Shown here: piece after piece, positions 25,784 to 31,865 of the stretch
How the letters are laid out: the number at the start of each line of letters is the position of its first letter
Position numbering within the stretch: position 1 is the first letter of the stretch
Origin: Escherichia coli
GTDB taxonomy: Bacteria; Pseudomonadota; Gammaproteobacteria; Enterobacterales; Enterobacteriaceae
Length of the DNA: 64,000 nucleotides
NCBI RefSeq assembly: GCF_044324785.1
Contig: NZ_CP172127.1
Reading direction: 5' to 3' (one strand)
Translations under genes and position numbers: made by a program
Notes under the pieces: generated by a model
Seen by the model: the letters and a program-made list of their open reading frames with translations, nothing else
Databases searched by the model: none
Told to the model about the DNA's origin: nothing

Positions 25784-26188
<405 letters not shown>

Positions 26189-26514
26189 TGGCCTCTGATA
26201 ATTCGATTGACCGTCGGCGGATGCGGCGCGAGTGCCTGGTCCGCCCTACAAGGCACCTCAATCGGAGGCCTGAGAAGACGCAACAGCGTCGCATCGGGCA
26301 ATCAGCATCAAACAATGCCACTCAAAACGTCAAATTACTTTCACCTAAAATACCCTTATCACCTGATATACAGTGAACACCTTACCTGGCGCGAATTTCT
26401 TTGAATAACGGCCTGCCGACCCGCTTATTTGCGCATCTTTTGTCTCGATATACATTTTCTGACATCCTCATCCGCTATGCTACAGGCACTAAAAATGGTT
26501 ATTGAGGAGCAAAT

Positions 26515-27174
26515 ATGGCTAACTGGTTAAATCAACTGCAATCCCTGCTTGGGCAAAGCAGTTCTTCTACCTCCTCGTCTGCGGATCAGGGATTGGGCAA
26601 ACTTTTAGTGCCTGGCGCATTAGGCGGACTGGCTGGGCTGCTGGTCGCAAATAAATCAGCACGTAAACTTCTTACGAAATATGGCACCAACGCGTTGCTG
26701 GTTGGCGGCGGAGCGGTAGCGGGTACGGTGCTGTGGAATAAATACAAAGATAAAATTCGCGCGGCGCATCAGGACGAACCGCAGTTTGGCGTGCAGAGTA
26801 CGCCGCTGGATGAGCGTACGAAACGTTTGATCCTTGCGCTGGTCTTTGCCGCTAAAAGTGATGGTCATATTGATGCCAAAGAACGTGCGGCAATCGACCA
26901 GCAATTGCGTGAAGCCGGCGTGGAAGAGCAGGGGCGTGTACTCATTGAGCAGGCAATCGAACAACCGCTGGATCCACAACGCCTGGCTACCGGGGTCCGC
27001 AATGAAGAAGAGGCGTTGGAAATCTATTTCCTGAGCTGCGCGGCTATTGATATTGACCATTTTATGGAACGCAGTTACCTGAATGCACTGGGTGACGCGC
27101 TGAAAATCCCGCAGGATGTTCGTGAAGGCATTGAACGCGATCTCGAACAGCAAAAACGCACTTTGGCGGAATAA
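26515..27174 (+). CDS. yebE: Inner membrane protein YebE (DUF533)
   Basis: 219-aa ORF recognised as YebE. Confidence 0.9.
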
Positions 27175-27306
27175 TTCCGCTCTCTGGATAGCCTGAAGTT
27201 GACGATTTCGGGCTATCCAGAACCGCACAGCCATTTGAGCAGGCTGATTTTCTCTGTCTGCATAACATTCGATATCCGCGCCATTACCTGTCATCATGTG
27301 ACTGCT

Positions 27307-27326
27307 CCCCGCCCTGTCGGGCGAGG
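27307..27326. repeat. Right-end subterminal hairpin of the IS (CCCCGCCC-tgtc-GGGCGAGG)
   Basis: Imperfect palindrome 12 nt past the tnpB stop codon; near-identical copy at the other end. Confidence 0.65.
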
Positions 27327-27337
27327 CTTCCCACTTC

Positions 27338-28507
27338 TTAAGCCGCAACCGTCTGTGTGACGGATTTACGCTGGCCTCCATGGGCAGAAACGACGAGTCC
27401 CGCCGCTTGTAATTCCAGTATGCCCTTGCGTTTGATGTTGAGCGCCGCGTTGATATCGCGGTCATGTTCAACTCCACACTCTGGACACTGCCAGATGCGC
27501 TTATGTAATGGCATCTCCGACATTTTGTGACCGCAGCAGTGGCAGGTCTTCGAACTGGCGAACCATTGATCCAGTTTCACCAGATGCACACCTTTCTCTG
27601 TTGCTTTGTATTCCAGTTTTGTGATGAATCCAGACCATCCAGCATCGCCTATCGCACGAGCCAGATGGTGATTTTTCATCATATTTGCCGTTTTCAATGT
27701 CTCGACAATTACCGCTTGGTTTTCGTCAACAATTGCGCGAGATAACTTGTGCTGGAAATCGGCACGGGCACTAGCTACCCGTTCGTGAACGGCTGCAAGT
27801 TGTATTCTGGCTTTGCGCCTGTTTGCGCTCCCTTTTTTCTTACGGGACAGTGCTTTCTGCTTCCGGCGCAGGTTGCGACTTGCATTGATTAGGTGGCGGG
27901 GACTGGCAATTTTATTGCCGTCCGATTTGATGACAAAATGCGCCAGCCCCATATCCAGCCCTGTCACATTTGATATCAGTGCGGGCTTTGCCGGCGCTTC
28001 CATCCCGTCGTCACAGAGTAACGACGCGTAGTATTTCCCGGTTGCGCTGCGGCTCAACGTGATACTTTTCAGCATTCCCGTAATTTCACGATGTAAACGC
28101 GCTTCAATCGGCAAGATTTTCGGTATTTTTATCGCACCATCAAGGACTTTTATGCCAACACAATGATAGCTCGATTGTCTGCCGTGTTTACTTTTAAAGG
28201 TTGGTTTACCTGCTTTCAGTTTCGGATTGAAAAAGTTAGAAAAAGCCACGTCGAGGTTAATTACCGCCTGCTGCAACGCAATAGAATCATATTCTTTAAG
28301 CCATCCATACCGGCGGGATTTCTTCGCCACTGCAAGCAGTGGTTTGAGGTCTTTACGCGGGTTTAAATTTACGCGGTGCCGCTGGTAAGAATGTTTCTTG
28401 ATATGCAGAGCTTTGTTGTACGCAAAACGCACTGCACCGAACTGGGCGTTGATAAATTCAGCCTGTTCTGGTGTCGGGTAGATGCGTACTTTTGTTGCTC
28501 TTAACAT
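27338..28507 (-). CDS. tnpB: TnpB (IS605 OrfB family; RuvC-like RNA-guided endonuclease)
   Basis: 389-aa ORF; RuvC-I GLDMG, RuvC-II E in VIVETL, zinc finger CHCCGH...CPECG, RuvC-III HDRDINAALNI. Confidence 0.9.
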   Translation of the reverse strand: MLRATKVRIYPTPEQAEFINAQFGAVRFAYNKALHIKKHSYQRHRVNLNPRKDLKPLLAVAKKSRRYGWLKEYDSIALQQAVINLDVAFSNFFNPKLKAGKPTFKSKHGRQSSYHCVGIKVLDGAIKIPKILPIEARLHREITGMLKSITLSRSATGKYYASLLCDDGMEAPAKPALISNVTGLDMGLAHFVIKSDGNKIASPRHLINASRNLRRKQKALSRKKKGSANRRKARIQLAAVHERVASARADFQHKLSRAIVDENQAVIVETLKTANMMKNHHLARAIGDAGWSGFITKLEYKATEKGVHLVKLDQWFASSKTCHCCGHKMSEMPLHKRIWQCPECGVEHDRDINAALNIKRKGILELQAAGLVVSAHGGQRKSVTQTVAA

Positions 28508-28563
28508 AATCAGCGCTCATTGATATAATGCTTTTATTTTAACACTTTAGGTGGATATATCAA

Positions 28564-28989
28564 TTGAGTAATCATGATGATTTACTGGCGGGATTTCTCC
28601 GCAAACGACACAGTGTCAGTAAGCTGGTTGTGCACCTTATTTTTACGACAAAGTATCGACGCAAACTATTCGACAGTCAGATGATCGCTCAGTTGCGTGA
28701 GGCTTTTGGCTCCGCTGCGGCAAAGCTTGAATGCGAAATTATTGAGATGGACGGGGAGCCAGACCATGTACACCTGCTGGTTGCCTACCCGCCAAAACTG
28801 GCGGTCAGTGTGATGGTCAATAATTTAAAATCGGTATCATCACGTTTGCTACGCCAGCAGAACGCGCATTTACGTATGCAGAGTAAAACGGGGCTTTTGT
28901 GGTCGAGATCGTACTTTGTCTGTAGCACCGGAGAGGCAACGATTGAAACGCTCAGAGCCTACGTTCAGAGTCAGTCAACACCTGATTGA
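28564..28989 (+). CDS. tnpA: IS200-type Y1 (HuH) transposase TnpA
   Basis: 141-aa ORF; TTKYRR block, HuH motif HVHLLV, C-terminal catalytic Tyr (RAYVQSQ); only in-frame start is TTG at 28564. Confidence 0.85.
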   Translation: MSNHDDLLAGFLRKRHSVSKLVVHLIFTTKYRRKLFDSQMIAQLREAFGSAAAKLECEIIEMDGEPDHVHLLVAYPPKLAVSVMVNNLKSVSSRLLRQQNAHLRMQSKTGLLWSRSYFVCSTGEATIETLRAYVQSQSTPD

Positions 28990-29022
28990 TCTTTAAAGCC
29001 CTGCGGGCTTTTCGCCTTATAT

Positions 29023-29044
29023 CCCCGCCCGCATTGGGCGAGGG
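29023..29044. repeat. Left-end subterminal hairpin of the IS (CCCCGCCC-gcatt-GGGCGAGGG)
   Basis: Near-identical to hairpin at 27307-27326; lies just beyond the tnpA terminator-like hairpin (28994-29011). Confidence 0.65.
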
Positions 29045-29118
29045 TTTACGGCGTTTTTCGCTAAGCAATGACTACCCTGTTTCGCTTGCATCTCCGGTGA
29101 GTTTTGCCACCCTTATAA

Positions 29119-31865
<2,747 letters not shown>

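Follow-up and report, generated by a model that had tools for sequence, protein, structure and literature searches.

An ISEc46 insertion with intact tnpA and tnpB genes between yebE and ptrB in a deep clade of Escherichia coli

Besides ISEc46 itself, the described insertion sequences closest to the element analysed here are IS608 of Helicobacter pylori, which serves as the mechanistic model of IS200/IS605 TnpA, and ISDra2 of Deinococcus radiodurans. The tnpA and tnpB genes of IS608 are co-oriented, and the TAM of ISDra2 is TTGAT. IS608 has a Y1 HUH transposase and subterminal palindromes, its left cleavage site lies outside and its right one inside the element, there is no target duplication, and a guide tetranucleotide stands 5' of each hairpin foot. 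Its guide/cleavage pairs are AAAG/TTAC and GAAT/TCAA (PMC5934647). In ISDra2, TnpB has a RuvC D-E-D triad and a CxxC...CxxC zinc finger, and a structured omega-RNA region starts within the 3' part of tnpB and runs up to the boundary of the right end (RE). In the published IS200/IS605 mechanism (PMC10055086, PMC3201880), excision by TnpA is followed by a TnpB cut at the resealed site, and recombination then restores the element.

In a window of 64,000 nt from Escherichia coli (contig NZ_CP172127.1), which is the whole stretch of DNA analysed, an element of this kind lies in the spacer between yebE and ptrB. In the alignment with K-12, positions 498|499 of the empty site are contiguous and correspond to window positions 27297|29061, with no target duplication, so the insert is 27298-29060, or 1,763 bp. 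The sequence-only reading had placed the element at 27295-29065, which located it properly with ends that were off by 3 and 5 nt, and it had stated correctly that K-12 has no IS at this point. An independent plasmid copy ends at the same bases as the window copy, and in 19 diverged relatives the similarity ends at the RE boundary (...AGTCAC). Its left end (LE) is at 29060 and its RE at 27298, so that the minus strand gives the LE-to-RE reading. The yebE stop (27174) and the ptrB ATG (29146) are 1,971 bp apart, as had been read, and the insertion point is 85 bp upstream of this ATG. When the whole window was compared with 72 kb of K-12 by megablast, two colinear blocks (1-27297 and 29061-64000) were obtained, with one gap of 1,763 bp on the query side and a gapless K-12 side; in comparison with K-12, this confirms the earlier claim that the window contains no other accessory DNA. 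The window was also searched for additional ends of the element and for miniature copies, and none were found.

There is strong indirect evidence that the element is the already catalogued ISEc46. This is the RefSeq label on identical DNA, and the copies labelled 'IS200/IS605-like element ISEc46 family transposase' and 'InsQ/TnpB' share 99.4-99.9% identity over the same 1,763 bp, with 2-12 SNPs between ISEc46 copies. In addition, ISEc46 was tabulated for an ST38 isolate in a 2019 paper as an intergenic element of 1,763 bp with the flanks TCAT/CTAA (PMC6963479), and the window insertion has the same length and flanks. The features of the element are collected in Table 1.

Table 1. Features of ISEc46 and its immediate flanks in the window
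Feature	Coordinates	Strand	Basis or role
Complete ISEc46, 1,763 bp	27298..29060	-	K-12 empty site, plasmid copy, 19 relatives, RefSeq label
TTAG (CTAA on +), flanking DNA outside the element	29061..29064	-	TnpA left cleavage site, predicted TnpB TAM
Left imperfect palindrome CCTCGCCC-AATGC-GGGCGGGG	29043-29023 (end feature 29023..29047)	-	Fold and sequence
Left guide tetranucleotide AAAC	29047-29044	-	5' of palindrome foot
Right imperfect palindrome CCTCGCCC-GACA-GGGCGGGG	27326-27307 (RE 27298..27330)	-	Fold and sequence
Right guide tetranucleotide GAAG	27330-27327	-	Sequence
Right cleavage site TCAC, end of 9-nt tail	27301-27298	-	Sequence
tnpA, Y1 HUH transposase, 141 aa, TTG start	28564..28989	+	Pfam, NCBIfam, IS608 alignment
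Hairpin AAAGCCC-TGC-GGGCTTT	28995..29011	+	DNA fold; right after tnpA stop, between tnpA and ptrB
Promoter-like TTAACA-17-TATAAT	28501-28529	+	Towards tnpA; consensus 11/12, with TG
Promoter-like TTGATA-16-TAAAAT	28563-28536	-	Towards tnpB; consensus 10/12, with TG
tnpB, RNA-guided endonuclease family, 389 aa	27338..28507	-	Pfam, NCBIfam, ISDra2 alignment
Putative omega-RNA scaffold, ~122 nt	27298..27419	-	Covarying consensus fold; ends at element boundary
Predicted omega-RNA guide flank ATGATGACAGGTAATGGCGC	27278..27297	-	Directly 3' of TTAG in the empty site

The two ORFs are divergent and have the lengths given by the sequence-only reading. This orientation is unlike that of the co-oriented IS608 genes, and the gene order also differs from that of ISDra2. 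TnpA matched Pfam PF01797 (Y1_Tnp) at 6e-39 with positions 1-121 of the 121 in the model covered, and it scored 141.8 bits against NCBIfam NF033573 (curated cut-off 55). Its HUH motif is H68/H70 and its catalytic residue is Y133, which aligns opposite Y127 of IS608 TnpA. The TTG codon used by tnpA is a weak start, and a Shine-Dalgarno sequence, AGGTGG, stands 9 nt upstream of it. The ISEc46 transposase has been described as N-terminally truncated (PMC9956272), but the truncation is unsupported if translation begins at the TTG behind AGGTGG, because PF01797 is then covered from end to end. The hairpin downstream of tnpA resembles a weak terminator, and it was not called in the terminator scan because its T-tail is too weak. 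The back-to-back sites in the spacer between tnpB and tnpA (28501..28563) are promoter-like by consensus match and are given here as candidate promoters.

TnpB contains three Pfam domains (HTH_OrfB_IS605, OrfB_IS605 and Cas12f1-like TNB), scored 342 bits against NCBIfam NF040570 (curated cut-off 100), and aligned over residues 4-380 with ISDra2 TnpB (8BF8/8EXA/8H1J) with an E value of 4e-74. By counting the chain numbering along this alignment, the RuvC residues were placed at D185, E269 and D351 and the zinc finger at C322, C325, C341 and C344, and the D-E-D triad is intact. The profile matches of both proteins bear out the earlier assignment to the IS200/IS605 family, and the ORFs with their catalytic residues bear out the impression of an intact element. 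In the literature searched, no demonstration of RNA-guided cleavage by ISEc46 TnpB was found.

ISEc46 lacks terminal inverted repeats; both ends have subterminal hairpins on the same strand, with identical arms that include a T.G mismatch. As in IS608, the left cleavage site is outside and the right one inside the element, and the guides are 5' of the hairpin feet. The left palindrome is 17 nt from the cleavage point and the right one has the 9-nt tail; these spacings (17 and 9 nt) compare with 19 and 10 nt published for IS608, where counting conventions may differ. Among 21 independent sites, which come from E. coli and six further genera, 20 have TTAG directly 5' of LE and one has CTAG, and the K-12 empty site contains TTAG as well. 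The predicted pairing of AAAC with TTAG and of GAAG with TCAC mirrors the complementarity seen in IS608. Compared with IS608, the target is TTAG instead of TTAC and the guide AAAC instead of AAAG, while at the right end the site is TCAC instead of TCAA and the guide GAAG instead of GAAT, each guide being compensatory at position 4. In a derivative element with the guide GAAC, the flank is TCAG. Judged by these sequence features, which are a Y1 transposase, subterminal palindromes, a TTAG target without duplication and guide tetranucleotides, the element belongs to the IS200/IS605 family.

The putative omega-RNA region includes the final ~80 nt of tnpB together with RE, as with ISDra2. In its consensus fold of 39 pairs, 97.3% of cells were paired, compared with 37-52% when the partners were slid, compensatory change was seen in 12 pairs versus 0-5 in the slid controls, and none of 500 shuffles reached the observed value. 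Two related sequences, L042 and L043, contribute most of the covariation, and the signal may therefore amount to essentially a single divergence event. Using Rfam at E<=1 over 26000-30000, no omega-RNA or other family was found in the element; the same scan gave sub-threshold REP-like and spurious matches, all outside it. From the published TnpB mechanism, the flank next to RE is the predicted guide. On the minus strand, the K-12 empty site reads AGTCATTGCTTAG|ATGATGACAGG, and K-12 and the other empty-site genomes examined have TTAG|ATGATGACAGG..., which is the guide flank plus the predicted TAM. This predicted TAM is TTAG, compared with TTGAT in ISDra2.

We consider it very likely that this is an intact and autonomous ISEc46 which was inserted once, long ago, 3' of TTAG and has been vertically inherited since then in a deep clade including ST38. 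If the element works like IS608 and ISDra2, a dimer of TnpA (HUH and Tyr133) would bind the subterminal hairpin at each end of the minus ('top') strand, and the cleavage sites TTAG and TCAC would be found by pairing with the guides AAAC and GAAG. TnpA would then excise the element as a single-stranded circle, the donor would be resealed without a scar, and the circle could reinsert 3' of another TTAG. TnpB would bind an RNA consisting of the tnpB 3' end and RE, extended into the flank, and this complex would recognise the resealed empty site, in which ATGATGACAGG... comes directly after TTAG, and cut there, after which recombination with the sister chromosome would restore the element. The predicted target of TnpB with the 3' RNA is TTAG followed by ATGATGACAGGTAATG. 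Since the predicted guide matches the empty site beside TTAG, the arrangement fits the published model of excision by TnpA and cut-and-restore by TnpB. We infer the activity of TnpA and TnpB and the expression of the RNA from this model.

The sequence-only reading had taken the insertion for strain-specific, and this part was not borne out. In 5,426 complete E. coli genomes, the same junction was occupied in 400 and empty in 5,025, and the occupied junction was found on at least three flank haplotypes, ST38 included. The insertion is thus clade-level, ST38 being one member of this deep E. coli clade. The comparison with empty sites in K-12 and other E. coli, which that reading had suggested, gave these empty genomes as well as the exact ends of the element. 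However, the occupied haplotypes are 1.25-1.4% apart, whereas the element copies at the site differ by 0.5% (compared with 1-1.9% in the 4-kb flanks), and flank mismatches start 33-133 bp from the element. These figures suggest another explanation, in which the site became occupied on several occasions, through repeated insertion at this TTAG or through homing between lineages, where an empty site cut by TnpB would be repaired with an incoming occupied copy as template and the conversion tracts would be very short. It would also agree with the flank distances per 2 kb, which are no smaller between occupied lineages (31-41) than between occupied and empty ones (20-43), and with the window copy, which is 5 SNPs from a copy at another locus and 9 SNPs from its counterparts at yebE-ptrB in ST38 or M114. 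In the 2-kb comparison the occupied lineages form no clade, and M114 is nearer to a genome with an empty site than to the remaining occupied lineages, so a single origin of the insertion is what we infer and not an observation. Most of this signal is removed by calibration, however. Among 32 core blocks of 1,763 bp in the 64-kb control, 3 (ST38) and 5 (M114) equalled or exceeded the element in conservation, which puts the element at about the 10th-15th percentile and within the normal range; the idea that it is anomalously young compared with its flanks was rejected, and its low divergence was dropped as evidence. Moreover, the occupied lineages differ less from each other than from K-12 (1.9%), in keeping with a shared deep clade, and a 2-kb flank gives a poor tree since the E. 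coli core genome is mosaic. Presence/absence polymorphism within haplogroups is almost nil: all genomes with flanks more than 99.0% identical to any of the three sampled occupied haplotypes were occupied, no empty-site relative of the occupied lineages (a sign of recent gain or excision) was closer than 98.4-99.0%, and the only empty-site genome near the haplogroup boundary was 99.0% identical to the M114 flanks. No SNP haplotype diagnostic of the occupied alleles was found around the insertion, 27239G being present also in the empty SMS-3-5. Filling of the site more than once is therefore improbable, and it is just as improbable that the three diverged backgrounds with a less diverged element are a trace of TnpB/omega-RNA homing or of strongly site-preferential reinsertion.

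The copy could also be a fixed relic, which is structurally intact but effectively immobile with genes that are silent or too weakly expressed, so that its sole present-day consequence would be the altered region upstream of ptrB. About 88% of the genomes with a full element carry ISEc46 at yebE-ptrB, and the copy number per genome has a median of 1 and a maximum of 5, most genomes having a single copy. The weak start of tnpA points in the same direction, as do the variable sites in tnpB, where 6 nonsynonymous and 5 synonymous changes make the evidence for purifying selection weak. Intact TnpB genes are also not always active, since IS608 TnpB was inactive in the assay of Meers et al. (PMC10055086). 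Against this, the ORFs (intact in 7 of 7 copies compared), the catalytic residues, both ends and the near-consensus promoter-like sites have been kept across lineages 1.4% apart, and nearly identical copies elsewhere in chromosomes, in plasmids and in phage-like contigs indicate that the family moved recently. We regard an immobile relic as rather unlikely and retain the intact, autonomous ISEc46 inherited from one old insertion.

In conclusion, ISEc46 between yebE and ptrB is real but ordinary, with nothing unexpected for an IS200/IS605 element, and beyond correct annotation this already known element matters little. In the empty K-12 spacer, a strict scan found no sigma-70 promoter for ptrB, and the best site in a relaxed scan (TCGATA-17-CATCAT, 8/12, ending at the insertion point) is too weak to interpret. 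The insertion puts 1.76 kb of DNA with a near-consensus, outward-reading candidate tnpA promoter in front of ptrB, and it could affect the expression of this non-essential protease, as the sequence-only reading had proposed for ptrB transcription. In addition, ISEc46 at this site marks a deep E. coli clade including the clinically important ST38. The TnpB of ISEc46 is native to E. coli, with a defined natural target and TTAG as its predicted TAM, and would be convenient for tests of the retention model in the host where it occurs.

When the window was aligned with K-12, two adjacent K-12 bases (498 and 499) corresponded to window positions 27297 and 29061, and therefore the insert between yebE and ptrB is exactly 27298-29060 (1,763 bp), with no duplication of the target. 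The sequence-only reading had placed an element at 27295-29065; an element is indeed present there, the K-12 site is empty, as that reading had expected, and the alignment replaces the earlier ends with exact ones. The two ORFs that it described were both found as tnpB and tnpA, and its distance from the yebE stop (27174) to the ptrB ATG (29146) was reproduced as 1,971 bp. An independent plasmid copy starts at the same base as the window copy, and beyond the other end the two have CTAA alone in common. The base at the right end (RE; ...AGTCAC) is also the end of similarity in 19 relatives from viral contigs, which have many different flanks and TnpB amino-acid identities of 70-100%. Using megablast, the whole window and 72 kb of K-12 gave two colinear blocks with a single 1,763-bp gap on the window side and no gap on the K-12 side, and therefore the statement that this is the only accessory DNA is true relative to K-12.

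The element is an intact, known insertion sequence. TnpA matched Pfam Y1_Tnp over the entire model (6e-39) and the NCBIfam IS200/IS605 transposase equivalog with 141.8 bits (cut-off 55), and TnpB, which contains HTH_OrfB_IS605, OrfB_IS605 and Cas12f1-like TNB domains, matched the guided_TnpB model with 342 bits (cut-off 100). With both proteins above the family cut-offs, the earlier assignment to IS200/IS605 is upheld. Identical or near-identical DNA in RefSeq is labelled 'IS200/IS605-like element ISEc46 family transposase' and 'RNA-guided endonuclease InsQ/TnpB'. An intergenic ISEc46 of 1,763 bp with flanks TCAT and CTAA was tabulated for the ST38 isolate 28Eco12 (PMC6963479); its length and flanks equal those of the window element, and therefore ISEc46 as an element, and very probably the same insertion, is already on record. 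In all features tested, its anatomy agrees with the IS608/ISDra2 paradigm.

Coordinates of ISEc46 and neighbouring features in the window
Feature	Position	Strand	Remarks
Inverted repeat	27183-27221	plus	17 bp, perfect, just 3' of yebE stop
Predicted guide	27297 to 27278		ATGATGACAGGTAATGGCGC
tnpB	27338-28507	minus	389 aa
tnpA	28564-28989	plus	141 aa, TTG start
Putative omega-RNA fold	27419-27301		final ~122 nt of alignment
Weak terminator-like hairpin	28995-29011		
naRNA4 matches	26170-26318	minus	yebF-yebE, sub-threshold

Read from the left end (LE) to RE, the element lies on the minus strand. TTAG stands directly 5' of LE in the window and in the plasmid copy. A search with an exact 25-nt LE pattern gave 21 independent sites in Proteus, Xenorhabdus, Photorhabdus, Phaseolibacter, Pluralibacter and Klebsiella; 20 of these have TTAG there as well, and one has CTAG. 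A subterminal hairpin lies 17 nt inside LE on the left and 9 nt from RE on the right, and its arms (CCTCGCCC...GGGCGGGG, with a T.G mismatch) are the same at both ends. Immediately 5' of its foot, the left hairpin has the tetranucleotide AAAC and the right one GAAG; the matching cleavage sites are TTAG in the flank and TCAC, the final four bases of the element, respectively. For IS608, with its described guide/cleavage geometry (PMC3201880), the corresponding sets are AAAG/TTAC and GAAT/TCAA (PMC5934647). Compared with IS608, guide position 4 is changed at both ends and site position 4 is changed compensatorily, which provides independent support for the boundaries and the TTAG target under a base-to-base pairing scheme that we derived from the two published IS608 pairs.

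Both proteins were aligned with characterised relatives. In TnpA, H68 and H70 lie at the HUH motif and Y133 is opposite the catalytic Y127 of IS608 TnpA. Residues 4-380 of TnpB align with ISDra2 TnpB (8BF8/8EXA/8H1J; E 4e-74), which gives D185, E269 and D351 as the RuvC triad and C322, C325, C341 and C344 as the zinc finger. A published survey called the ISEc46 Y1 protein N-terminally truncated (PMC9956272). Against this, the TTG at 28564 has AGGTGG, a good Shine-Dalgarno sequence, 9 nt upstream, an in-frame stop lies at 28540, and the earliest ATG in frame is codon 40, where a start would lose the first beta-strand. Because the TTG start gives a complete Pfam domain and 141 aa, within the 133-159 aa span of solved homologues, we take TnpA to be full-length, its start codon being weak, and the published truncation is probably an artefact of ORF calling by ATG only. 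The 56-bp spacer between tnpB and tnpA holds back-to-back promoter-like sites (11/12 and 10/12, each with TG), which are consensus matches only. A comparison of seven full copies showed tnpA and tnpB intact in each; the number of sites that vary (synonymous/nonsynonymous: 5/6 in tnpB, 3/1 in tnpA) is too small for selection to be judged.

A putative omega-RNA was examined by aligning 230 nt up to the RE boundary in the window copy with the same region of 14 distinct relatives. The consensus fold has 39 pairs in seven helices, with 97.3% of cells paired, compared with 37-52% when partners were slid by 1-3 columns, and with both-side changes in 12 pairs, compared with 0-5 in the slid controls; the observed value was reached in 0/500 shuffles. 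Because the compensatory changes stem mostly from two related sequences (L042 and L043), the covariation may in essence reflect a single divergence event that affected several helices. The fold extends across the final ~80 nt of tnpB and the RE hairpin, where the omega-RNAs of characterised TnpB systems also lie (PMC8612924, PMC10278001), and no Rfam family matched it.

The insertion had been thought strain-specific, but it is a clade marker: the left junction was found in 400 of 5,426 complete E. coli genomes, on several flank haplotypes, while the reconstructed empty site was intact in 5,025. The full element is present in 455 genomes (median one copy, maximum five). Records at least 99% identical to the flanks numbered about 80 for the window, 206 for ST38 and 39 for M114 (two other occupied lineages), and the closest empty-site genomes reached 98.4%, 98.5% and 99.0% identity, respectively. 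Within the element, the window has 9 SNPs (0.5%) against ST38 and against M114, whereas the 4-kb flanks diverge by 1-1.9%, the first mismatches lying 33-133 bp away from the element. The flank distances form a star-like pattern, and an empty-site genome is nearer to M114 than the other occupied lineages are. This lower divergence of the element, together with the star-like flanks, suggested that insertion at the yebE-ptrB site might have recurred or that homing might have occurred there. However, a 64-kb control gave this no support. Differences per 1,763-bp block ranged from 4 to 89 (median 22-23), and blocks with nine or fewer were 3 of 32 against ST38 and 5 of 32 against M114, so the element is relatively conserved without being an outlier. 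Over 64 kb, the three occupied lineages are nearer one another (window-ST38 1.42%, window-M114 1.37%, ST38-M114 1.25%) than the window is to K-12 (1.90%). The simplest reading is one old insertion, inherited within a deep clade; multiple acquisition is the less likely alternative.

The insertion point is 85 bp upstream of the ptrB ATG. A strict scan of the K-12 spacer found no sigma-70-like promoter, and a relaxed scan gave just one 8/12 candidate, with its -10 ending precisely where the element was inserted. When the site is occupied, the predicted tnpA promoter points at ptrB through the weak terminator-like hairpin and the LE hairpin, and an effect on ptrB in either direction is plausible. 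The inverted repeat beside yebE (TCTGGATAGCCTGAAGT...ATTTCGGGCTATCCAGA) probably serves as the terminator of yebE or as a palindrome for protein binding; it also accounts for a spurious Rfam miRNA match and for a reverse-strand self-hit in BLAST. The two naRNA4 matches (28 and 25 bits; gathering 59.5) are typical of REP/BIME repeats there.

From the published model, we infer a mechanism for ISEc46 in which TnpA would excise the top strand, reseal the donor without a scar and reinsert 3' of TTAG, and an RNA running past RE into the flank would supply the guide. On the minus strand, the empty site of K-12, like that of every other such genome examined, reads TTAG followed by ATGATGACAGG..., that is, a transposon-adjacent motif (TAM) plus a guide-matching target, so that TnpB would be expected to cut the excision product. 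Recombination with the sister chromosome would then restore the element, as TnpB cleavage and recombination do for Geobacillus elements (Meers et al., PMC10055086).

Related copies were also observed elsewhere. A second chromosomal ISEc46 (L053:1501-3263, E. coli GPEC874; likewise strains E8, 23CRST025 and CM188245) interrupts a gene for an IclR-family regulator, located between yfaU and yfaY, and leaves it as pseudogene fragments; because it is the closest non-allelic relative of the window copy (5 SNPs) and has 28202T in common with it, recent transposition within the window's lineage is suggested. In Phaseolibacter flectens, a gene-less 47-nt mini-element, CGAAAAACGCCGTAAACCCTCGCCCAATGCGGGCGGGGAGCAGTCAC directly after ttag, combines the 5' part of the ISEc46 LE, a single hairpin and the RE tail at two different sites (approximately L007:7457-7503 and L008:3370-3416, minus strands), and represents a minimal palindrome-associated transposable element or, alternatively, a product of recombination between the identical LE and RE hairpins. 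A ~197-nt miniature without tnpA and tnpB in Photorhabdus heterorhabditis (L023, minus strand, LE match 1842-1866) begins, after TTAG, with the ISEc46 LE and ends ...GGCGGGGAGCAGTCAC. Two Xenorhabdus hominickii contigs (L009 and L010) have an ISEc46-like LE start with at least 240 identical nt downstream, 12 nt of the 5' flank shown also identical, and no tnpA or tnpB following; the region has either been duplicated or represents a separate non-autonomous element with a common LE terminus. Solo RE remnants of 38 nt, 100% identical to window 27298-27335, occur in several plasmids (L049:401-438; H146-H150). In the E. coli plasmid pHFQ1 (L049), the flank equals the guide of a tnpB-only derivative on viral contigs L026, L027 and L028 (~1380-2710), so remnant and derivative occupy one insertion site, truncated in the plasmid by other IS elements. 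That derivative, with its boundary set by homology and not by an empty site, has a TnpB 99% identical to that of the window, lacks tnpA, and carries a left end fused directly upstream of tnpB. In place of AAAC its guide is GAAC, and TCAG replaces TTAG in the flank, in agreement with the expected guide/cleavage pairing. Should its TnpB still need TTAG as TAM, the donor joint left by this derivative would be no target.
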